Shown: piece after piece, positions 13,576-64,000 of the stretch
Layout: each line of letters starts with the position of its first letter
Position numbering within the stretch: the first letter of the stretch is position 1
From: a virus
Length of the DNA stretch: 64,000 bases
Direction: 5' to 3' (one strand)
IMG/VR virus record: IMGVR_UViG_3300027719_000004
Span: 2,824-66,823 of that record
Notes under the pieces: model-generated
Database searches by the model: none
The model's input: the letters and a program-made list of their open reading frames with translations, nothing else
Told to the model about the DNA's origin: nothing
Program-made: the position numbers and the translations under genes

Positions 13576-14721
13576 TCATAATCCAAATCCTTTCATGGCA
13601 TCCTGCTTATGATCTTCAAGCAGGTGAGTATACCTCTGCGTGATCCAAAGCGTACTATGTCCTGCTATATCTGCCGCCAGCTGGATGTCCTTGGTCTGCA
13701 TGATCAGGTGAGTGATAAAGCAATGCCTCAGCTGGTGAAAGATAAAGTCTCCCAGCCCTGCCCTCTTAACAGCCGCATCAAATCCGATGTTGCTGCTGAC
13801 CAGCATGGCGACGCCCGACTTCTTGGGTGACGGGAATACCCAACCACCTATGTTGGTCTCGTTGGCAAGTTTCCATTCCAACAGGGCCTTCTTCAGTTGG
13901 GCCGTGAGGGGTATCCTGACTTCCTTGCCCTGCTTTACCGTCCGAGTGATCTTGTTACCCTTCCAATCAATGTGCTCCCATCTAAGCCCCAGTATGCCCT
14001 CCTTGCGTAGTCCGGTGTGCAGGGCTACTGTCACCATGGTCTTGAGATGTTTAGGTGCAACACGGTCTCCACAGGCCTCCAGAAGCTTGGCAATCTCTTC
14101 TTTTGTTAATGCCCTGTCTCTGGTCTTGGGCTCTCCCAGTTTAGGGTAGTCCTCCATGGGGTTTCTGGACAGCATTCTCTTCCTCACACATATCGTCAGT
14201 AGCCTGCTTATGGCTGTCAGCTCCCTGTTAATAGTGGCTGGCTTGGGGAACTTATCCGTATCCTTAATTGGTTGTGTCTTCCTGACCCTTATGTAGTCAT
14301 CAATGGTAATATGATCCAGCCTCGTTATGTTGGTGTTACCCAGTATAGGCAGCACGTTGGTATTGATGGCTGACATATACCGCTTGGCCGTCTTTGAATC
14401 CAGAGACCCATTTTCTACCTGCTCTGTGCACCACTTGTCAAATATGGCAGCGGCCTCTTTCAGCGTGTAGCTGGATGGCTTGGTTGTTATCTCTCCAGAA
14501 GATGCCCTCCTGATCAGCTCTGCCTCACGGGCTAGAGCATCTGCCTTGCTATCTCCCATCGTCTCAGAATACTTCTCTCCTCCGATATAAACTGACAGCT
14601 TCCACTTGCTGTACTTGGTAGCAGCACCCCCGCAATGGGGGCACCTCTCTCCCTTAATCTTTTCGGTCTGGACCTGCCTGACCTTCCCGCAATCACATGT
14701 TAACAGTTTGAAGACTGCCAT
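13576..14721 (-). CDS. int: Phage tyrosine integrase
   Basis: ATINREL, TGLRKEG, HQLRH, AGH....TQRY catalytic motifs. Confidence 0.95.
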   Translation of the reverse strand: MAVFKLLTCDCGKVRQVQTEKIKGERCPHCGGAATKYSKWKLSVYIGGEKYSETMGDSKADALAREAELIRRASSGEITTKPSSYTLKEAAAIFDKWCTEQVENGSLDSKTAKRYMSAINTNVLPILGNTNITRLDHITIDDYIRVRKTQPIKDTDKFPKPATINRELTAISRLLTICVRKRMLSRNPMEDYPKLGEPKTRDRALTKEEIAKLLEACGDRVAPKHLKTMVTVALHTGLRKEGILGLRWEHIDWKGNKITRTVKQGKEVRIPLTAQLKKALLEWKLANETNIGGWVFPSPKKSGVAMLVSSNIGFDAAVKRAGLGDFIFHQLRHCFITHLIMQTKDIQLAADIAGHSTLWITQRYTHLLEDHKQDAMKGFGL

Positions 14722-24147: not shown

Positions 24148-24423
24148 ATGGCAAACAAGCGGACGTTGGTTGATTTATTGAGGGATGATTTTGATGTGAA
24201 GAAGTGTGTGGCAGAGCAGATGATCGATTCGATCTTGGAGACGATACTGCAGACGGTCTACAAGAAGAACGAGCTGTTTCAGATTAGGGGATTTGGTACG
24301 TTTGCTGTGAAGAAGTTCAAGGCAAGGGAGTTTAGGAATCCAGCTACAGGTGGGACTATGAAAGTGGGGCAACGGCAGCTTCTGAAGTTCAAGCCATCTC
24401 CTACGTTGCGTATTACGGTATAA
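24148..24423 (+). CDS. HU/IHF family DNA-binding protein
   Basis: IRGFGTF......R..RNP.TG.......KFKPS..LR. Confidence 0.9.
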   Translation: MANKRTLVDLLRDDFDVKKCVAEQMIDSILETILQTVYKKNELFQIRGFGTFAVKKFKAREFRNPATGGTMKVGQRQLLKFKPSPTLRITV

Positions 24424-26191: not shown

Positions 26192-26538
26192 ACGTCCTCC
26201 TTCCCTATCAACTCAAGACACGCTGCAACTACAGCTTCACGTCGGGTTTGCACGTCCATACTGCCTGATGTAGTTTGTCTAGGTGCATAAGTTATAAAGC
26301 AATCCCATGTTACAAACTCAGCCATCAAGCTGCTCACAAGCTGAACCTTGTAGCCACGTTCAGCAAGCGTATCCAGCAGAGAGCCGTTAGCGGCATCGTC
26401 GGAAGGGTAGTCAGGCAATGATTTGTAATAAAATGCGTTACAGTGGTTTAGTGGGAATTTCCACTTACCTCTATTTTGTCTGCTGCCTCGGCAGTCTCTA
26501 GCGCCCTGCCACCTTGCCAGCTTCTCGTTGTCAGTCAT
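26188..26538 (-). CDS. Hypothetical protein (ABA-sandwich-like)
   Basis: PDY..D..A...L....AVVAACL pattern; RBS GGAGGGG. Confidence 0.45.
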   Translation of the reverse strand: MTDNEKLARWQGARDCRGSRQNRGKWKFPLNHCNAFYYKSLPDYPSDDAANGSLLDTLAERGYKVQLVSSLMAEFVTWDCFITYAPRQTTSGSMDVQTRREAVVAACLELIGKEDV

Positions 26539-26812
26539 TTGCTCCCCCTCCGTATTCCATAGCGGCAATGGCATCTGCTATCTCACAGCATCTACCGTTT
26601 CCATATTCGTCAACATGCTGTGCATTAACTATCTCTATAGCTTTAATCTTCCCCTGCTCCCACCCACGCCTAAAGGCGTCTTTGGCAGACTCGTCTGCCT
26701 CACGGCGGGCTTGTTGGAGTTGTTGTTCAACACCAGTATATAGTACAAATCTACCTTCAGTGTGTTCCGGCAGATATGAAGGTCCGCCATCTTTAAAATC
26801 GTATCGTCTCAT
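26531..26812 (-). CDS. Hypothetical protein
   Basis: Coupled ORF in the leftward operon. Confidence 0.55.
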   Translation of the reverse strand: MRRYDFKDGGPSYLPEHTEGRFVLYTGVEQQLQQARREADESAKDAFRRGWEQGKIKAIEIVNAQHVDEYGNGRCCEIADAIAAMEYGGGAND

Positions 26813-26815
26813 CCC

Positions 26816-27418
26816 TCACCCCTCCAGTTTAAATGATTTGCATATGCTGCGAATAAGACAACTGCGATCATGGCTGTCTATTAGAAAAAACTCAATATGC
26901 TTGCAGATAATTTCCCTTGCCGCCTCTTGACGGGCTTCGGATCTTAGCTTTTCTATGCGCTTTGGAAACGCAACTTGTTTAGTATAGTCCACCTCTGCCC
27001 TTGCCTCGGCAAGCTTGCTCTTTAAATCAACAATGCAAGGCAACACTTTGTCATGTATTGATTCACCTAATCCAATGTTTAACTCCCTTGCAATATCTTG
27101 ATAAGGTAACATTACTGACTGTGCTGCTTTCTTCCATTCCATTGCCTCGGCAAGTAATTCACGCAAGTCTGAAATGGTTTCGTTATAACAAACCTCTGCG
27201 CCCCTTGTCTCGGCAAGCTGCTTCAGTAGATCTGGAGTGTTAGCAGCCTCGGAAACTAGCCGTTCTATTGTGTGTGCTTGTTCTCTGATTAACTCCTTGA
27301 GCCTGTCGATATAGTCAGCAATGCAAATTAATGTCTTAGCTAGAGATTGCCCTGTTGCGTCTCGACCGTTGTAGGCCAATGCTGCCAGCCGTAATTGCTT
27401 AGTATCAATTTCCATCAT
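26816..27418 (-). CDS. Coiled-coil hypothetical protein
   Basis: Repeated LAE.R/LAEA segments; RBS GGAGGGG. Confidence 0.6.
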   Translation of the reverse strand: MMEIDTKQLRLAALAYNGRDATGQSLAKTLICIADYIDRLKELIREQAHTIERLVSEAANTPDLLKQLAETRGAEVCYNETISDLRELLAEAMEWKKAAQSVMLPYQDIARELNIGLGESIHDKVLPCIVDLKSKLAEARAEVDYTKQVAFPKRIEKLRSEARQEAAREIICKHIEFFLIDSHDRSCLIRSICKSFKLEG

Positions 27419-27542
27419 CCCCTCCTTGTCGCTTTTGCTCCCCGCATTAGGTCGCTATTAAATGTTTTTAGGTTCCATAATACAGGGAGTTAGCTTTAAA
27501 TGTATGTCGTTTTTCACTGATTATTAGGGGGCCTAATACTCG

Positions 27543-27815
27543 TTAGGTACTTTCAGGCGGAGCAGGTAGTGGCATCCAGTAGGTAGGCGGCTTACTGTCA
27601 AACGCAAATTGGTGTCCAATGATAAAGTAACCGTTAGACCACTTTGCCGCTACCTGAACACGGCTGTTGTTTATGGTATCAACTTCTGGCAGCAAGACCA
27701 GAACAGGTGTTCCGTCCGTCGGCATTGTATCAATCGGCATCCATGTGCCTAACGCGCATTCAACGCGGAGTTGCTTGCTCTGGGCGCAATTTCCAGCAGT
27801 TTCTTTCTCGCTCAT
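27543..27815 (-). CDS. DUF551-like protein (cassette 1)
   Basis: W.PI.T.P.DG..VL ... PTYWMPLP.PP. Confidence 0.75.
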   Translation of the reverse strand: MSEKETAGNCAQSKQLRVECALGTWMPIDTMPTDGTPVLVLLPEVDTINNSRVQVAAKWSNGYFIIGHQFAFDSKPPTYWMPLPAPPEST

Positions 27816-27868
27816 TCGGTGTCTCACTCTCTTCGGTATCGCAACCCGGTTAATTTTGTACGTTAGAG
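27747..27868 (+). other. attC site, long form (122 bp)
   Basis: GCCTAAC-GCGC-ATT[C]AAC..CGG[A]GTTGC ... GCAAC-CCG-GTTAAT-TTTGTAC-GTTAGAG. Confidence 0.78.
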
Positions 27869-28150
27869 GCTATCGGCCAGCGCCTCTCTTGCTACCGCTG
27901 TCGCGTCTTCAATCGTGTAGTCCATCTCAGGGCAGGTAGTTGCCGCTATATTTTCGAGGGCTTCTTTGTATCTGGCTATTTTTCTTTCAAACTGGCAAAT
28001 TTGAGCCACGTAAAATGATCCTGCTCTGTTATGGAATTGGCCCTGCAGCTCTTTTACTTCTGTGGATAATCTCTTTAAGGCGAGTGCTTGCATTGACCTA
28101 CTATTTTTATTCCGTTCAGCCTCTTCAAATGCTTCTGCCAGTGTCATCAT
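27863..28150 (-). CDS. Hypothetical coiled-coil protein (cassette 2)
   Basis: Stop TAA is the TTA of the GTTAGAG core; YKEALENIA...VAREAL motif. Confidence 0.65.
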   Translation of the reverse strand: MMTLAEAFEEAERNKNSRSMQALALKRLSTEVKELQGQFHNRAGSFYVAQICQFERKIARYKEALENIAATTCPEMDYTIEDATAVAREALADSL

Positions 28151-28169
28151 AATCCGGCTCCTTTGCTGC

Positions 28170-28232
28170 CTCTAACGGCTCAATCAAGTGCGACTGGCTT
28201 ACAGCCAGCGCCTTATCTCGTTCTCGTTAGGT
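28170..28232 (+). other. attC site, short form (63 bp)
   Basis: CTCTAAC-GGCTC-AAT[C]AAGT-GCG[A]CTGGCT-tac-AGCCAG-CGC-CTTAT...GTTAGGT. Confidence 0.8.
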
Positions 28233-28234
28233 AT

Positions 28235-28429
28235 TTAGCCAGTAATCTCTCCGCAGCCAGTACAAAAAATCTCAAATCCAAAGTGGTGTCCAAGGGTGTT
28301 ATCTTTCCCAGCTGCAACCGCTTCATCTTCTGTGTCAAATGTAGCAAGCTCTTCGTGTTCATCACCTACAACTAATGGTGCAATCCCACCGCTACAGCAA
28401 TTCAGCATTACAAAATATGGTTTCATCAT
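28235..28429 (-). CDS. Hypothetical protein (cassette 3)
   Basis: 64-aa ORF bounded by GTTAGGT and ACCTAAC; RBS GAGG. Confidence 0.6.
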   Translation of the reverse strand: MMKPYFVMLNCCSGGIAPLVVGDEHEELATFDTEDEAVAAGKDNTLGHHFGFEIFCTGCGEITG

Positions 28430-28491
28430 GGTTATTTCCTCTCTGCACCTAACAGCTCAATCAACTCGGACTGGCTTGCGTTTTCCATCTC

Positions 28492-28785
28492 TCACTCCTT
28501 AATCCGCTCAAGGGCGGTACGGGCAATATCCTTCAAAAATACCACTTGCAGCAAGTCTTTCTCAGCAGTCCATTTAGTATATGTTATCCTCTCCAACGCC
28601 TCCGTTGCTATAGTGAGCTTCTGGTCTAATTCCACTACTGCTTGGTCGCTACTAGCGTTGTGCTTTTCAAGTGTAGCCACCTCTGCCAGCAGGGAATCAA
28701 CCATCTCAACACTATGAGCATCAAAATACTCTTGCTCTGTTGGTAGCACTGTTGCCCTGATCTCTTTAATTTCTTCGATGGTCAT
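28492..28785 (-). CDS. Hypothetical protein (Ead/Ea22-like pattern)
   Basis: LLAEV..LE...ALERI pattern. Confidence 0.55.
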   Translation of the reverse strand: MTIEEIKEIRATVLPTEQEYFDAHSVEMVDSLLAEVATLEKHNASSDQAVVELDQKLTIATEALERITYTKWTAEKDLLQVVFLKDIARTALERIKE

Positions 28786-29051
28786 AGGATTGGCTCCTTC
28801 TGGGCGGCCTCGATGCGTTTGTTCCTGATGTAATCTACAAGCGTTACCTGAGGCACGTTGGGGCTAAGGCTGGATATAAAGCTGATGTCTGGCTCTGTAT
28901 TTGAGTCTCTGTACTGGTAAGAATTTGAAGGGCCGGACTCCTCTACCATGGCCGCACCATCTAAGGCAGCCAACAGATTGCTCATCTCTTCTGGCGACAG
29001 CGGTCTGGTGAGTATTGAACTTCTCCAAGCCACCTTGATCAAAACCCTCAT
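28782..29051 (-). CDS. Hypothetical protein
   Basis: Coupled ORF; RBS GGAGG. Confidence 0.55.
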   Translation of the reverse strand: MRVLIKVAWRSSILTRPLSPEEMSNLLAALDGAAMVEESGPSNSYQYRDSNTEPDISFISSLSPNVPQVTLVDYIRNKRIEAAQKEPIL

Positions 29052-29302
29052 GCCAACCTCCTCTCTGTCAGCACTCTTCTATAAACGCCTAGCTGGTAGT
29101 GGGCTGCCTCAAGTTCTGAACTAAACTCCCTACCGTCTGAACACTCATAAACTATGACCTGATGTCGCAATGGGTATTCTGCCTGAGCTGGAGCGGCTAA
29201 GGTCTTCAACTCTCTCTGTTTGGCTGCTCTCATGTGATAGTAAGCCCTGTCTTTACAGATCTTGCACGTAGGCAGGTTGCAGTCGCATTTATGTGGTCTC
29301 AT
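29048..29302 (-). CDS. Hypothetical Cys-containing protein
   Basis: C.C...C..C at the N-terminus; YECSDGREF motif. Confidence 0.55.
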   Translation of the reverse strand: MRPHKCDCNLPTCKICKDRAYYHMRAAKQRELKTLAAPAQAEYPLRHQVIVYECSDGREFSSELEAAHYQLGVYRRVLTERRLA

Positions 29303-29303
29303 G

Positions 29304-29477
29304 TCACCCTCTCTTTACCAGTCGCTGTAGTGTTGTTCTGATCAAGTCTGATCTACTTATCTCTTTGTCTGCTGACAATGCGTCCAGAGCATCTGCCAGA
29401 GCTTGCGGAACCCTGAAATGTATGATCACGTCCTTGCCCGGCGGACGGTATAATGGGTTGTTACTCTGCCCAGTCAT
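29304..29477 (-). CDS. Ribbon-helix-helix (CopG-like) protein
   Basis: Translated by hand: ...VIIHFRVPQALADALDALSADKEISRSDLIRTTL; RBS GGGAG. Confidence 0.7.
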   Translation of the reverse strand: MTGQSNNPLYRPPGKDVIIHFRVPQALADALDALSADKEISRSDLIRTTLQRLVKRG

Positions 29478-29587
29478 GTCGTGCTCCCTTCTTCAGCTTG
29501 CGTGGTGGTATGATCACGTAGACCAAACAGGCGATACCTCCGAATAATATAGCCCTTGCCGCTATCCAGTCAATCAAGAAGTCCATC

Positions 29588-58936: not shown

Positions 58937-58954
58937 CTTGTGGGAGCACAAACT

Positions 58955-61900
58955 ATGGGCTTCGATTATGAAGGCGCTAAGGCAGCAGGATATTCTGACG
59001 ACCACATAGCAGACTACCTTGGGAAGAGCGAAGGGTTCGATGTAGCTGGGGCACGCAAAGCTGGCTACAGCGGTTCAGACATAGTCAAGCATCTCACGCA
59101 AAACAGACCCCCAGCCCCAGAAACTTCCTCCTTTGCCCGTCGTGCTCTGGGGGATACGGCTGTCTCTACTGTCAAGGGCGCTGTCGGTCTGGTCCAGTCT
59201 GGAGTAGGTATCGCTGACATAGCCACAGGTGGTCACGTCGGCAAGGCTATAGAAGACTATACTCCCATTCAGCTGAAACAGACCCAGACCCTGCTTGACG
59301 ATATGTATTCCCCTGAGCAAAAGGCTGCCAATCAGTATGTGGCAGACGCCAAAGGGTTCGGCGGAAAAGTTAAGGCCCTAATAGATCGTCCGTCTGTTGC
59401 TTTGCACGGTGCCATAGAATCGGCTCCTTCAATGTTGGGCGGGGCAGGAATAGGCCGTGTTGCTGCCAAGGTTGCTCCCAAGCTGGTAGGAGGTGCTGCA
59501 AATGCGTACAGAGCAGCCGCGCTTGGCGAAGGGGCTTACTCTGCTGGGTCACTGGCCGAGGGCATGCGTGAGCAGAATGCTGAGGGCCTTCTTACTGCCG
59601 GTCAGGCCGCCGCTTCAGTATTGGGTGGCGTAGGTACTGGCGTTATAGGTGCCGCTTCAGGAAAGCTGCAAAAGAAACTTGGATGGGATGATGTAGAAGC
59701 CTCGCTCATCAACAAGGCAGCTATCGGAGACAAGAAGAAATCACTTGCTACCCGCATGATCCAAGGGGGTGTATCCGAAGGTGCTATTGAAGAGATGCCC
59801 CAGTCTATGTGGGAAAAAGGTGCTGAGAATCTTGGCACTGGCAAGCAGTACACCGATGGTATGCTTGAGGCTGGTGCAGAAGGCCTTATCACTGGCGGAC
59901 TTATGGGCGTAGGTGGTGGTGGTTACCAGCATCTGGCTGCCAAACAAGATAAGCAGGACTCCCCATTTACCCAAGAACAGTTACGTGCAGCTGCCCGTGA
60001 GCAGTGGCCTGAAGCAAAGAATCTGACTGATGCCGAGGTTGACGCATTGGCTGCTCAACGTGGTGCCAAGATCAGGCAGCAACCGGTTGGCCCTGACACT
60101 GACATGTTGCAGATAGGCTATGACCCGCTGCTTGGCGACAAGTCCCGTGTTTGGGGCGAATCAGCTGCTATCTCCCCATCAGCAAAAGACGTGATGCAGC
60201 CCATCAAGTTAACTGATGCCGACATACTAGGAGACACCATAGACGGTGAGTATGAGGATGTCCCCGCCCAGTTGGCTCTGCCAGCCCCTAAGCGCAACAA
60301 CGCTATAATGGTTGACCCGGCCGGTAACGCATTGGCCGGAAGCGGAATGGCTGACCAACTCAAGCAACCCATTGAAGCTCTTAACGCACAGATGGCACAA
60401 AGGCAGGCCATACCTAATTCGGCAGCGAAGATAAATGCCATACCGGAAGCTAAAGGGACTCCCGATAAACTACAGGTAACCAACGCTGACCCCCGTCAGA
60501 TGGCCATTAACACAGCTGACACGACTATTCATAACGGGCCAGCGAAAGATGGCAGCGCAACAGTAGCACCGACGCAACCGGCCATACCTGTCTGGGATGC
60601 GTTGTCAGCACGACTGCAGCAGATTGACGCAGATCACCAATCTGGTTCTATGCCTGATGCCAGTTACAATGCCGCCAAGAAGAGTATCAACGTGGCAATG
60701 AGGAACGAGATCGAGCGGTTGCGGCTGGAGCACGCCAAGTCTCAGCTTGAAGCCAAGATGGCCCCCAAGCCTATCGTAGACCCGAGCGCACCGACACCAT
60801 CCACCAAAGAAGTTGTGGGTGTTGAGGGATATAAACAAAAAGGAGACTCATCATGGCAAAAGGCGGATTCCCAATCGCAGCAGGAAAAGGCAAACCCAAC
60901 CCCTTCGCAAAAGGTGGTGTATCCCCAGCAATCCCCGGAGGCAAGCCCTTCGGTGGAAAAGAAAAAGGCCCCTGCAAAAAAGGCGGTAAGAAGTAAAGCA
61001 GCACCAGCTGATGTGCCAAGTGCACAAACTGTAACGCCTCCGGTTGAGTCTACGCCGGAGGTAGCTGCTCCTAAGAAGCCCTCAAAGAAGACCGCCATAT
61101 CCAAGTCAGCAGAAGCCCACAAGGCTAAACAAAAAGAGGTAGCTCCAGCTCCTGCTGAGGCCGTCAAGGAAGTTAAATCTAAACCCGTGCCTGATGCCAA
61201 GGCTGAGGTCGCTAAATCGGCTGGCAAGCCATTCCAGATAAAGACGGAAGGCGGTGACACGGTATCGGTACAGGCCAAAGACAAGAACACCGCTAAAAGA
61301 ATGGTGGCCATGGCTGAAGCGCAAGATGCCATACCGTACCTGAAGCGAGAAATACAAAAGGCCAAGGACAAAAACCGTGACGCAGGGTATATAAAAGACC
61401 TTGAGACTAACTTGTCTGAAGCCAGAGACACGGTGGCCAAGAGCAAGACTGATGGTATCGAAGCCCCCACTGATTGGGGCATGGACGCCAACGATAATAA
61501 CCAAGAGGCTGAACTGGCTGATGTCAAGGATACCGATGTCAGATCCAATAAGTGGTCTGTGGCTGGAGACAAGAAAGACCGCACCTACACCAGAAACCAG
61601 TTCAGAGCCAAGCTGGCCAAGGAGCGCGCTCTTGCGACTCTTAACTCTCAGAAGCTGAGAGAGTGGGCCAAGGGCAAGGCTGGCATCAATATCTGGGATA
61701 GCTCCTCTGAAATGAACGAGAGCAATTCTGCGCTGGTTGACCGCAAGCCACTCAAGTCCAGTATGTCTGGAGATATGGCTGAAGGTTTCTACGACACCAA
61801 GACTGGCCAGATCCACATCTTCGCCAATGCTATTGCCAATATCACCATGGGCAACCAAAGCAGGTTGTCCTATGTCTTCTCCCACGAACTGAGCCACAGG

Positions 61901-64000
61901 GGATTGCGGTCTCTCTTTGGAGATAAGCTGAACCTGCAACTGTCTGCTGTCTATGCTGCCAACAAATCTACAATAGAAGCTGGACTCCCTAGTCTAAACT
62001 CTGTTAGGGCCAAGGCCAAGATAGCACCCATTAACACCGATACGTTTGCTGGACGTCTTGAGGCTGCTGACGAGTATCTGGCTACGCTGGCTGGACTAAA
62101 TGCGGAGCAGCGACTTGGGCCAGTATCCAGACTTCTGGCTGCCGTCAGAAACCTGATGCGTAATATCGGATTCAAGCTGGAGCTCACCGATAACGACATC
62201 CTGTCTATGGCTGGGAGATCCAAGGCTGCAGGTAAGACTGTATCTGCCGAGATCGCCGATCAAAAAGGTGTAGGGCTTGACGAAACTCCTAAGAAGTCGT
62301 ATGATAAGAACGTAAACAGTATTGGTGTAGGCGGAAACATAGAAGTTGCCCCTAATCCAGACGATACAGCAGCTGACGCCCAGTGGTCCGCAATGCCTGA
62401 GGGCGACAAGTACCGTATCACCGGCCTGATGATGAAAGAGTTTGCTGGGCCGGTTCTTGAGGAGTTCGGGTTTAAAGAGGGCAGAGATTACACGATCTCT
62501 TATATTAAGGGGGCATACGGCTCAGGGATCAACCCGTCTACGGACATAGTGTTCAAGAACCCTGCCCTGAAGTCGTACACCAAAGTAAGGGAAGCCATTC
62601 AGGCTCTCGGCGGGGTGCTGAGACAAAAAGAAGTGGTGGTGTACGACACCTTTGATTCAAAGCATGAAGACGCTTCTCACTTCACAGCGGTAACGGCGGT
62701 AGAAGGCAATATTGACGGCTTGTACGAGGCATTGCAGCAACAGTTCCCTCAGATGGTAGAGGGGGCCACTATTCGCGGCAATATGATGGCAATAGGTAAC
62801 TTCACTCGTTTCGGCGATAATCCGGTGAGTGACACAGAGTTCCACCAAATGATCAAAGATGTAGCAGATAAGCATGACGGAAAATACAAGCTGGATGGAT
62901 TCAAGTTCAGGTCTGAACTACTTGAATCAACCAAACTGGAGGCAGAAGATGGCAGTGATAGAGGACAACAGTTACGGACCGGGCAGCGCGAAGTTTTTTC
63001 AGGACTTACTCGGGAAGGGCGGCTTCGTGCCACACAGGCCAAAGCAGACGCAAGACTCGCAGAGCACATCAAATCCGCAGAGTCAGGCAAACGCTACTCA
63101 GCCAATCCCGCAGGACTGGATGGATCAGATGGCTCAAGAGTTCAGAGAACAGATGAGCGGGGATTCCCAGTCAGGGCAGATGGACGCTACGAACTCACCC
63201 ACTGGAGCAGCAAACAAGGGCTGACCGAACTTGACCCGTCTTTCCACGGCAACGGCATCAGTGGGGCAGAGTCGAAGCGCAAGAAGAACGACCCATCCAA
63301 CTGGGTAGACCGCACATACTTTGGGCTTACCGATGGAGACCGTGGGTATAAGAAAGAGCCCGGACTAGGTTCTGCAAAATACGTTGCCAGCATAGACCCG
63401 AAAGAGCTGTACGATTTTGGTGCTGATCCAGACGGGCTGAAACCTAAGTCCATGGACTGGGGACAGTTCAGTTACTCAAAATATGAGAAGCTGGTCAAAG
63501 AAGCTGGCTACAAAGGGTATATAGTAGATCACCCACAGCTGGGTCATGTGGCAGCGCTATTTGATAAAGTGGCTCCAGAATCACACATTGACGAGACCAC
63601 TGGAGATAAGAGATATTCAGCACCTTCTGAAGATGCGTTCCCAGTAGCTGGTATAGCCGGAGTGCGGCAGCTCTTCGCAAAGCGTATGGCTGATTCGATG
63701 TCCGCAATGGGTTACGACTTCAAGATGTCTACACGCACGTTGAAGTACGCAGATGATCACCGGTCTTACAAAATACAATACACGGTAAGCCGCAATGGCG
63801 AAGAGCTCCTGATAGCTGACAGAGCCATTTATGAGAGCGAGACATACAACGGTAAGCTGGTCGCCCTGTTATCACAAGCAAATGGTCTGGTTGTTAAGGA
63901 TGGCAGAAGGACCTCAAAGCAGGCTTACAAAGACATAGCAGCTGCGGAACTTACCCACCTTTCTGACTTGGTGGATATTGTCCAGTCGTCCCTGCTTGGG
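58955..64000 (+). CDS. Giant polyvalent virion protein (>1680 aa, 3'-truncated) with zincin-like HExxH and ART-like domains
   Basis: Not in the ORF track because it has no stop in the window; starts MGFDYEGAKAAGYSDDHIADYL; in-frame SHELSHRGL at 61880-61906 and THWS..DP..HG.G..GAE..TYFG..LYD..DP..AGYKGY at 63180-63580. Confidence 0.8.
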   Translation, partial: MGFDYEGAKAAGYSDDHIADYLGKSEGFDVAGARKAGYSGSDIVKHLTQNRPPAPETSSFARRALGDTAVSTVKGAVGLVQSGVGIADIATGGHVGKAIEDYTPIQLKQTQTLLDDMYSPEQKAANQYVADAKGFGGKVKALIDRPSVALHGAIESAPSMLGGAGIGRVAAKVAPKLVGGAANAYRAAALGEGAYSAGSLAEGMREQNAEGLLTAGQAAASVLGGVGTGVIGAASGKLQKKLGWDDVEASLINKAAIGDKKKSLATRMIQGGVSEGAIEEMPQSMWEKGAENLGTGKQYTDGMLEAGAEGLITGGLMGVGGGGYQHLAAKQDKQDSPFTQEQLRAAAREQWPEAKNLTDAEVDALAAQRGAKIRQQPVGPDTDMLQIGYDPLLGDKSRVWGESAAISPSAKDVMQPIKLTDADILGDTIDGEYEDVPAQLALPAPKRNNAIMVDPAGNALAGSGMADQLKQPIEALNAQMAQRQAIPNSAAKINAIPEAKGTPDKLQVTNADPRQMAINTADTTIHNGPAKDGSATVAPTQPAIPVWDALSARLQQIDADHQSGSMPDASYNAAKKSINVAMRNEIERLRLEHAKSQLEAKMAPKPIVDPSAPTPSTKEVVGVEGYKQKGDSSWQKADSQSQQEKANPTPSQKVVYPQQSPEASPSVEKKKAPAKKAVRSKAAPADVPSAQTVTPPVESTPEVAAPKKPSKKTAISKSAEAHKAKQKEVAPAPAEAVKEVKSKPVPDAKAEVAKSAGKPFQIKTEGGDTVSVQAKDKNTAKRMVAMAEAQDAIPYLKREIQKAKDKNRDAGYIKDLETNLSEARDTVAKSKTDGIEAPTDWGMDANDNNQEAELADVKDTDVRSNKWSVAGDKKDRTYTRNQFRAKLAKERALATLNSQKLREWAKGKAGINIWDSSSEMNESNSALVDRKPLKSSMSGDMAEGFYDTKTGQIHIFANAIANITMGNQSRLSYVFSHELSHRGLRSLFGDKLNLQLSAVYAANKSTIEAGLPSLNSVRAKAKIAPINTDTFAGRLEAADEYLATLAGLNAEQRLGPVSRLLAAVRNLMRNIGFKLELTDNDILSMAGRSKAAGKTVSAEIADQKGVGLDETPKKSYDKNVNSIGVGGNIEVAPNPDDTAADAQWSAMPEGDKYRITGLMMKEFAGPVLEEFGFKEGRDYTISYIKGAYGSGINPSTDIVFKNPALKSYTKVREAIQALGGVLRQKEVVVYDTFDSKHEDASHFTAVTAVEGNIDGLYEALQQQFPQMVEGATIRGNMMAIGNFTRFGDNPVSDTEFHQMIKDVADKHDGKYKLDGFKFRSELLESTKLEAEDGSDRGQQLRTGQREVFSGLTREGRLRATQAKADARLAEHIKSAESGKRYSANPAGLDGSDGSRVQRTDERGFPVRADGRYELTHWSSKQGLTELDPSFHGNGISGAESKRKKNDPSNWVDRTYFGLTDGDRGYKKEPGLGSAKYVASIDPKELYDFGADPDGLKPKSMDWGQFSYSKYEKLVKEAGYKGYIVDHPQLGHVAALFDKVAPESHIDETTGDKRYSAPSEDAFPVAGIAGVRQLFAKRMADSMSAMGYDFKMSTRTLKYADDHRSYKIQYTVSRNGEELLIADRAIYESETYNGKLVALLSQANGLVVKDGRRTSKQAYKDIAAAELTHLSDLVDIVQSSLLG
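60853..60996 (+). CDS. Nested 47-aa basic Gly/Lys/Pro protein in an alternative frame
   Basis: RBS AAAAGGAGA; MAKGGFPIAAGKGKPNPFAKGGVSPAIPGGKPFGGKEKGPCKKGGKK. Confidence 0.5.
   Translation: MAKGGFPIAAGKGKPNPFAKGGVSPAIPGGKPFGGKEKGPCKKGGKK
62949..63224 (+). CDS. Nested 91-aa Gln/Ser-rich protein in an alternative frame
   Basis: RBS GGAGG 6 nt before the ATG; lies in a linker of the giant ORF. Confidence 0.4.
   Translation: MAVIEDNSYGPGSAKFFQDLLGKGGFVPHRPKQTQDSQSTSNPQSQANATQPIPQDWMDQMAQEFREQMSGDSQSGQMDATNSPTGAANKG

Follow-up and report, generated by a model that had tools for sequence, protein, structure and literature searches.

Integrons are gene-capture devices of bacteria, with cassettes oriented for a single promoter beside the integrase gene, and integron parts have recently been shown in phages too. 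Phages also carry other repeats between small genes: the hyperplastic regions of T4-type phages have promoter-stem-loop repeats at the boundaries of small-gene modules, which are unrelated to attC sites or to IntI. A survey of 10,705 phage genomes yielded, according to the accessible portion of the report, three complete integrons, one In0 and 17 attC clusters, and IntI1 recombined five of the six phage attC sites tested (Qi et al. 2023, PMC9892861). Here we analyze a stretch of 64,000 nt (the window), corresponding to bases 2824-66823 of a 66,823-bp IMG/VR virus record (IMGVR_UViG_3300027719_000004, labelled G000) that stems from a metagenome assembly. We consider it probable that window positions 27542-28477 are a cluster of attC sites lacking an integron integrase (CALIN), made of three cassettes with inverted genes that come from a pool common to phages of the host group and are read from a phage operon. 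A first-pass annotation, made from the letters of the window alone, had assumed such an array in a phage to be new; a phage-borne attC cluster as such is known, having been published in 2023 (in the part of PMC9892861 at hand). What is new here, as far as our literature search goes, is the systematic inversion of the genes and a phage-associated integrase clade: that search returned no description of arrays with uniformly reversed genes, nor of a phage IntI clade, which is not proof of their absence.

Three cassettes with complementary termini

The three units open with a core and close with its inverse, as the first-pass annotation had described, and every core and inverse core is present at its position. 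The core GTTAGGTAC (27542-27550) is complementary to GTGCCTAAC (27745-27753) with one mismatch (8/9), GTTAGAGGC (27862-27870) is complementary to GCCTCTAAC (28168-28176) at all nine positions (9/9), and GTTAGGT (28226-28232) to ACCTAAC (28447-28453) at all seven (7/7). Complementarity extends past the GTTA/TAAC cores at 37 of 40 positions in ten cassettes (those of the window and of G002, a phage contig described below; counted by hand), as predicted for cassettes that were once circular. The crossover points G|TT on the top strand (27542|27543, 27862|27863 and 28226|28227) delimit cassettes of 320 bp and 364 bp, plus a truncated third. The TTA of the core is also the stop codon of two open reading frames (ORFs), the DUF551 ORF (27543-27545) and the 95-aa ORF (27863-27865), as had been noted from the sequence before.

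None of the three is a canonical cassette, with a promoterless top-strand ORF directed toward its own attC: all three ORFs lie on the bottom strand. The array consists of two complete attC sites, 302 nt apart, and a truncated one, with no IntI in the 66.8-kb record, which makes it a CALIN; the minimum of two sites is the one used in PMC9892861, as far as the accessible text goes. The absence of a recognizable IntI, also proposed from the letters alone, was borne out with the TIGR02249 profile (cut-off 265): we did not find an integron integrase anywhere in the record, and the sole tyrosine recombinase of the phage scored 52 bits. The third site had been described as keeping its left half alone, and it is indeed a truncated attC (28447-28477) with weak model matches (Table 1).

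Identity of the attC sites

The sites were searched for with two covariance models, R1 and R2. The seed of R1 consisted of long sites alone, namely attC1 and four others, all from G002 (five in total), because MAFFT misaligned short and long sites together. The R1 score of attC1 (104.1 bits) is that of a training site, and the independent match of R1 is attC2; R1 also recovered 82 bacterial attC sites. R2 was built from these 82 sites of Geobacteraceae chromosomal integrons alone, in an alignment fitted with a model trained on phage sites. In this phage, R2 matched attC1 (E 1.3e-17), attC2 (E 2e-16) and, weakly, the truncated site, with no other match. Over 172,695 nt of three phage genomes, the other matches were five sites of G002 and a weak one at the truncated third site. 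The attC identity claimed by the first-pass annotation is thus upheld by the R2 matches, and by the occurrence of this family, in another phage contig, next to a genuine IntI.

In the bacterial alignment, compensatory changes were observed in 11 of 22 pairs, none of 500 shuffles reached the observed values, and slid controls collapsed; the alignment was fitted to the structure, which is somewhat favourable to this covariation result. Within the window, the stem GTTGC/GCAAC of attC1 compensates for the CTGGC/GCCAG of other sites, and attC1 can be aligned along its whole length with the G002 sites. The R boxes on the bottom strand read ACCTAAC...GTTAGAG in attC2 and CTCTAAC...GTTAGGC in attC1, and pair over CTAACG/CGTTAG in the folds. 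attC2 folds better than its shuffles as DNA (-12.5 kcal/mol, z -3.9), and the truncated site (28447-28477) has no fold of its own. At 63 and 122 nt, the two complete sites lie within the usual length range of attC sites, 57-141 nt. The window sites are related to each other, as indicated by a direct repeat of 35 nt (28166-28200 and 28443-28477) that is 83% identical; the pattern of this repeat gave two matches in the search, with none expected.

A scan with a looser form of the repeat-derived pattern of 185,579 species genomes (one per prokaryotic species) returned 62 loci, nearly all in Geobacter, Trichlorobacter or other Geobacteraceae, often with 3-7 copies per 3 kb. IntI scored above the cut-off in all three of the pattern-scan genomes tested. 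The bacterial sites are nearly all 132 nt long (n=82, loci L023-L084), and among the phage sites lengths of 48-64 nt are common, through deletion of the loop region, attC2 being an example. By their sequence and predicted structure, the window sites are attC sites of the Geobacteraceae chromosomal-integron family, and the same likeness makes a member of Geobacteraceae the likely host of the phage.

We also considered ordinary regulatory hairpins of the phage, such as terminators or RNA-processing sites, with a chance likeness to attC. attC2 lies between operon genes and forms a strong hairpin as sense RNA (-29.6 kcal/mol, z -2.8), and no Rfam family matches the region (two chance-level matches over 26500-29500 at E up to 10, both outside the attC sites). 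However, such hairpins would not account for matches to family-specific models with E from 1e-13 to 1e-17, nor for the presence of the same family beside IntI in bacteria and in one phage; there is no T-run after the hairpins, and attC1 is conserved over its whole length yet lacks a strong fold. We give this explanation almost no credence.

Two functional readings of the conserved repeats were dropped. Selection on a peptide encoded by the attC arm (S-K/Q-S-E-L-I-E-P-L) does not explain the conservation, since the same DNA is conserved in bacteria, antisense to the genes; and a role as mere promoter or ribosome-binding-site linkers was abandoned on the copies of the element beside IntI in G002 and in bacterial integron arrays. 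The frame that encodes this peptide is a separate observation. The attC bottom strand has one open frame through its 3' arm, in the window (28432-28488 and 27741-27815) as well as in L091, L097, L099, L102 and L103, and the attC loop of several phage contigs contains an ATG and its ribosome-binding site, from which the frame runs into the cassette gene as an attC-encoded leader. In the window, this frame corresponds to an 18-aa ORF and, possibly, to a longer N terminus of the DUF551 protein. Such leaders may arise simply because the frame happens to be open.

The genes are inverted relative to their attC sites

A palindromic attC reads on both strands, and its orientation was therefore tested in three ways: by the bulged bases, by the position of intI, and by the genes recognized by Pfam. 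The extrahelical bases of the bottom strand near L'' have been described as G16, A or T20, and T24, with 5' RYYYAAC as R' (Nivina 2016, PMC5027507, in the part of the text available). In this family, bulged G, A and T are found on the 3' arm of the gene-sense strand, beside the GTTAG box, matching the published bottom-strand pattern so far as that part of the source describes it. The T and the A (C in some copies) are clear, with a spacing of 4 nt, and the G, which could alternatively form a G-T pair, is likely. This bulge pattern identifies the minus strand of the window as the bottom strand.

The position of intI agrees. Trichlorobacter thiogenes shows the ordinary layout: an array upstream of intI, with the bottom strand of its sites on the intI strand and its ORFs on the opposite one. 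Sites and intI are arranged likewise in the phage G002, but there the ORFs share the strand of intI. Gene content gives the same picture. Of 40 distinct bacterial cassettes, 30 have a longest ORF that is antisense to the bottom strand, and Pfam matches (E up to 1e-5) in bacterial arrays were found for 10 of 30 antisense ORFs versus 1 of 19 sense ORFs (a HicB antitoxin). In the window and G002 taken together, the matches were 2 of 18 sense ORFs (DUF551 and DUF5131) versus none of 13 antisense. The 2.5 kb upstream of intI at five further phage-IntI loci gave Pfam matches for 5 of 40 ORFs on the intI strand versus 0 of 35 on the other strand; the families were N6_N4 methylase, Lar, DUF7736 and, twice, DUF551.

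The genes are, then, inverted relative to their own attC sites, as the first-pass annotation had claimed, and this pattern is not peculiar to the window, being found also in related phage arrays. An artefact of reading the wrong strand was dropped as its cause after the comparison with the IntI-bearing arrays of G002 and of bacteria.

Gene orientation bears as well on the possibility that the array derives from a chromosomal integron of the host, as a fragment carried over by imprecise excision or recombination, as in Vibrio anguillarum prophages. The attC family is that of Geobacteraceae chromosomal integrons, and such captures are documented (PMC9892861, within the portion accessible). Against this origin, the genes in bacterial arrays are on the other strand relative to attC, one window site measures 63 nt versus 132 nt in nearly all 82 bacterial sites, the cargo includes the phage-type DUF551, which is also found upstream of intI in phage loci L019 and L020, and the array sits in the middle of a co-directional phage operon in a complete record with terminal repeats. 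We regard a host piece as very unlikely.

Integron integrases in other phages

The repeat-derived pattern found one other viral contig, L003 (record G002). G002 is phage-like, with terminase, portal and tail genes over 39 kb, and carries at least six copies of the attC element between consecutive small genes. Seven attC sites lie beside its IntI, five recognized by model match and two placed by eye. The IntI, a protein of 345 aa encoded directly downstream of the array, matches TIGR02249 over the full length with 397 bits, versus the cut-off of 265.

The organization of G002 (L009 3117-8430; L004 and L015) is that of a temperate-like phage with a complete integron in its early operon, comprising at least seven attC sites and having DUF5131 among the cassettes. 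There is an attI-like site about 50 nt before intI, one cassette has its own promoter and operator-like repeats, and a second, ordinary integrase is encoded elsewhere in the record.

Relatives of the G002 IntI were identified in seven more viral contigs, six of them near full length and one with a match over 27 residues. Among six phage IntIs (that of G002 and five relatives), pairwise identity is 71-86%, compared with 41-51% between them and four Geobacteraceae IntIs; these pairwise identities suggest a phage-associated integrase clade. R1 gave no match at the seven other phage-IntI loci. Their arrays upstream of intI (L016-L022) have hairpins of 51-64 nt of a different sequence type, seen with a separate hairpin scan, and genes that include a DNA methylase, Lar restriction alleviation and DUF551, a cargo that suggests counter-defence.

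Relatives and cassette mosaicism

G001 was the sole close phage relative found among viral contigs, with 67% identity in the DUF2201 protein. At the same locus, between conserved homologues of an 84-aa gene and the 200-aa gene, it has quite different genes, among them one cassette between two short attC-like sites, with matching termini of 10 bp. A homologue of the 64-aa cassette (72% nucleotide identity) occurs in the viral contig L091, on the same strand relative to the attC sites as in the window, but between two complete attC sites and with different neighbours. The termini of these two homologous cassettes differ from each other and match internally (GGT/ACC in the window, GGGGT/ACCCC in L091). 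DNA that is 96-99% identical to the 95-aa gene was found in wastewater and manure contigs in which the flanks or the attC loop differ; in one of these contigs, the site after the gene continues into a loop of the long type, versus the short site of the window. When the phage cassette proteins were compared by local tblastn with all loci of this analysis, those of the window had no match, and the one cross-locus match was that of a G002 zinc-ribbon protein with L016.

The first-pass annotation had proposed comparing relatives for gains and losses of genes that end precisely at the cores. A gene about 95% identical between G001 and L091 loses homology at the TAAC box downstream; on the upstream side, the limit of homology is the start codon. 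At the scale of cassettes, the alignments show mosaicism among phages, bounded by attC sites.

In a separate observation, a wastewater contig connects 26988, in the 200-aa gene, to 28677, in the 97-aa gene, through a joint with a side of 51 nt and 11 shared letters that would remove the whole array; it may represent a relative without the array or a repeat artefact.

The ends of the array

In the direction of transcription, the array begins with an attC reduced to its 3' arm (28447-28477), cut at the hairpin apex; similar arm-only sites precede genes in L100 and L103. The other end, 27520-27548, shares TAAC-N-A-NN-ATTA and a C-run with a motif about 50 nt upstream of intI in six phage loci, a short likeness of about 10 positions. 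The ORF closest upstream at these six phage-IntI loci shares the strand of intI too, and at several of them its stop codon is inside the TAAC. An exact-pattern scan of viral contigs for the motif at 27520-27545 gave 0 matches. From this short match, the downstream end is possibly an attI remnant.

The same end overlaps an intergenic element of 135 nt (27413-27547), with a 12-bp stem, that spans the interval between the core at 27542 and the start of the 200-aa gene. Contigs from wastewater, manure and lake samples have this element at 90% identity or more and at high summed depth, followed by other genes than in the window; we did not find an exact-pattern match in viral contigs, nor a match in Rfam.

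Weighing the evidence

Several results weigh against an array of inverted cassettes assembled by an integrase. The long site, attC1, folds no better than its shuffles (z +0.95), so that its support is its homology to the attC family. Orientation judged by ORF length is noisy: in a window of 330 nt downstream, the split was 50 versus 26 of 78 bacterial sites and 7 versus 3 of 10 viral sites. Neither end of the array is the expected product of a simple IntI crossover. The upstream limit of homology of the gene shared by G001 and L091 is not a core. G001 is a single close relative, and four of the five neighbouring-protein searches were empty (the 200-aa and 277-aa proteins in viral contigs; the 200-aa and DUF2201 proteins in metagenome contigs). 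Contig joints in which a core is joined directly to an inverse core (27547 to 28455, 27866 to 28447, and 28231 to 28448) have sides of 21-28 nt and undefined inserts, and support nothing on excision. The mosaicism falls short of proving the action of an integrase. Finally, both array ends (27388-27555 and 28396-28563) are abundant in unrelated metagenomes, and a mis-join is possible in a metagenome assembly.

The truncated end and the limit at the start codon are what would be expected if the sites were genuine attC sites but inert relics, with cassettes that arrived by homologous or illegitimate recombination with IntI-bearing or other phages. Consistently with such relics, sites reduced to the 3' arm are found in L100 and L103 too, G000 and G001 differ throughout the interval between the 84-aa and 200-aa homologues, beyond the cassettes, and we found no IntI in G000 nor in five further viral fragments with this attC family, which are 33-63% complete. 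However, neither complete site has lost the pairing of its R boxes, any of the three bulged bases or the spacer, and the terminal inverted repeats are intact (7/7, 9/9 and 8/9), where decay would be expected without selection. The homologous cassettes of the window and L091, with termini that differ between them and still match within each, also speak against relics, and we regard this explanation as unlikely.

The abundance of the array ends raises the further possibility that the assembly joined cassettes from bacteria or other phages into a phage contig by way of abundant attC-related repeats. The genome was assembled from a metagenome, and in unrelated metagenomes the summed depth peaks in the bins 27388-27555 and 28396-28563. 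Yet the direction of the genes, the ribosome-binding sites and the inverted layout agree with independent assemblies from other samples (G001, G002 and L091), and the pieces would need to have been joined in the sole orientation that fits the operon. Such an artefact appears highly improbable.

We therefore favour an integrase-less array of three cassettes with inverted genes. The bottom strand, which integron integrases recombine, is the coding strand of all three cassette genes. The genes are co-directional with the surrounding leftward operon and have their own ribosome-binding sites, and would most likely be expressed by read-through from a phage promoter. The cassettes would be drawn from a pool common to phages of the host group, some members of which have their own integron integrase with the same array layout, and would be gained and lost through IntI acting in trans, supplied by the host chromosome or by a co-resident IntI-bearing phage. 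Phage-encoded IntIs are an alternative source to the host IntI, and the array may itself descend from a complete phage integron.

More tentatively, and with somewhat more doubt than belief, we propose that Geobacteraceae phages run a phage-adapted integron of their own, with a distinct IntI clade, genes on the bottom strand that are read toward attI and intI and not from Pc (the cassette promoter), and integrase-less phages that share the pool. The IntI clade would lie at the downstream end of the early operon, and the cargo would consist of accessory and anti-restriction genes (DNA methylase, Lar, DUF551 and DUF5131). Integrase-less phages, such as that of the window, would use the same cassette pool with sites kept at a fixed place in the operon. 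The recombining strand would be the non-template strand of an active operon, which might couple transcription to the folding of attC.

This locus reveals entire arrays, reversed in gene-to-site orientation and embedded in phage operons, which in some phages are accompanied by a dedicated integrase. Active sites would give phages a means of site-specific exchange of small accessory and counter-defence genes, and would help account for hypervariable, "moron"-like stretches in phage early regions. As regards the genesis of cassettes, one attC family is joined to genes in either orientation, depending on the replicon. The comparison would also link an uncultured phage of 66.8 kb to a Geobacteraceae host.

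Genomic setting

The record has direct terminal repeats, is rated 100% complete, and encodes terminase, portal or adaptor, major head protein, RecE-like exonuclease, primase/helicase and one integrase. The cassette locus lies within a block of small genes on the minus strand (Table 1). The DUF551 frame remains open further upstream through attC1, with alternative starts at ATG 27815 and GTG 27827, and the long form of the protein also matches Pfam DUF551 (E 6e-8). The 95-aa protein found only itself in a search of 5.8 billion proteins, with no homologue, and its only profile match is a weak, sub-threshold one to WXG100; Pfam and PHROG searches with the 64-aa protein gave no match. The 18-aa ORF may be a chance open frame. 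A consensus-match scan gave no terminator-like site on the minus strand between the promoter candidate (29546..29573) and 27400. INPHARED phages, compared with 26800-29300 in near and distant mode, gave no match.

Two further features were noted outside the array. A motif of about 15-18 nt (plus strand GACGGTATAGTGGGT, minus strand ACCCACTATACCGTC) occurs in seven copies, at 24414, 25079, 29444, 30435, 31993, 32900 and 34079, in the leftward gene block only; most copies lie, as judged by eye, immediately upstream of the start or ribosome-binding site of a minus-strand gene, and the motif looks like a phage promoter or operator. A very long ORF (58940-64000 and 2-1447) exceeds the end of the window, encodes at least 1,687 aa and probably continues across the terminal repeat of the record; its sole match is PHROG 30335 (profile length 2,900, function not known).

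Table 1. Coordinates of the array and of other features in the window.
Feature	Position	Strand	Details
attC1	27747..27868	- (bottom strand)	Long type, 122 nt; R2 65.4 bits, E 1.3e-17
attC2	28170..28232	- (bottom strand)	Short type, 63 nt, 3-nt loop; bulged T, A and G on 3' arm; R1 57.3 bits, E 1.4e-13; R2 61.6 bits, E 2e-16
Truncated attC	28447..28477	-	3' arm of the bottom strand (L''-R'') alone; R1 11.6 bits; R2 14.5 bits, E 0.11
Cassette 1	27543..27862	+	DUF551 gene and attC1; top strand, TTAGGTAC to G of next core; termini 8/9
Cassette 2	27863..28226	+	364 bp; 95-aa gene and attC2; termini complementary 9/9
Cassette 3	28227..28477	+	64-aa gene, truncated attC at end; termini GTTAGGT/ACCTAAC 7/7
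Downstream end of array	27520..27548	-	Beside 200-aa gene; R' box CCTAAC, then attI-like motif; no attC hairpin
DUF551 gene, 65 aa	27543..27740	-	Start ATG 27740; Pfam DUF551 E 2e-8; PHROG 924
95-aa gene	27863..28150	-	Function unassigned; AAGGAG ribosome-binding site 7 nt before ATG
64-aa gene	28235..28429	-	Function unassigned
18-aa ORF	28432..28488	-	Reads out of truncated attC; stop 2 nt ahead of 64-aa gene start
97-aa gene	28492-28785	-	Next upstream of 64-aa gene in leftward block
200-aa gene	26816-27418	-	Separated from DUF551 gene by 124-nt gap
Best sigma-70-like promoter candidate	29546..29573	-	TTGACT-16-TATATT, 10/12 consensus matches; upstream of the leftward operon with the cassettes
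Sole tyrosine recombinase	13576..14721	-	TIGR02249 52 bits versus cut-off 265, C-terminal part alone; PHROG 1 integrase

Comparison with known integrons

In canonical cassettes, a top-strand gene is read by Pc; the window genes, being on the bottom strand, would point toward Pc. Reversal is frequent among toxin-antitoxin cassettes. Reverse-oriented cassettes of chromosomal integrons do have their ORF on the bottom strand, as in the window, and HicB is such a case, 1 of 11 bacterial ORFs recognized by Pfam. Those cassettes are exceptions within their arrays, whereas in the window all cassettes are reversed and include neither a toxin-antitoxin pair nor an apparent cassette promoter. PMC13108822 describes toxin-antitoxin cassettes as having a promoter of their own. 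With the canonical attC, as described in the accessible part of PMC5027507, the window sites share R' RYYYAAC, R'' GTTRRRY, extrahelical bases, an unpaired central spacer and a variable terminal structure.

The sedentary integrons of Geobacteraceae (T. thiogenes ATCC BAA-34; L033, L053 and L077) share with the window the R box, the L stems, the G/A/T bulges and the conserved loop-proximal sequence. They differ in that their sites are nearly all 132 nt long and their genes are opposite the bottom strand, whereas in the window one site measures 63 nt, the bottom strand bears the genes and intI is absent.

The closest counterparts are the CALINs of Qi et al. (PMC9892861), which, like the window, have attC-bounded cassettes in phage genomes without intI. 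So far as the accessible portion of that report describes them, the window array is distinguished by its attC family, which is that of Geobacteraceae, and by a coding strand that is the bottom strand in all three cassettes, an orientation on which the supplementary tables of the report may bear. The complete integrons in the same portion of the report are fragments of host or class 1 integrons, whereas the related phage integrases identified here appear to form a clade of their own.

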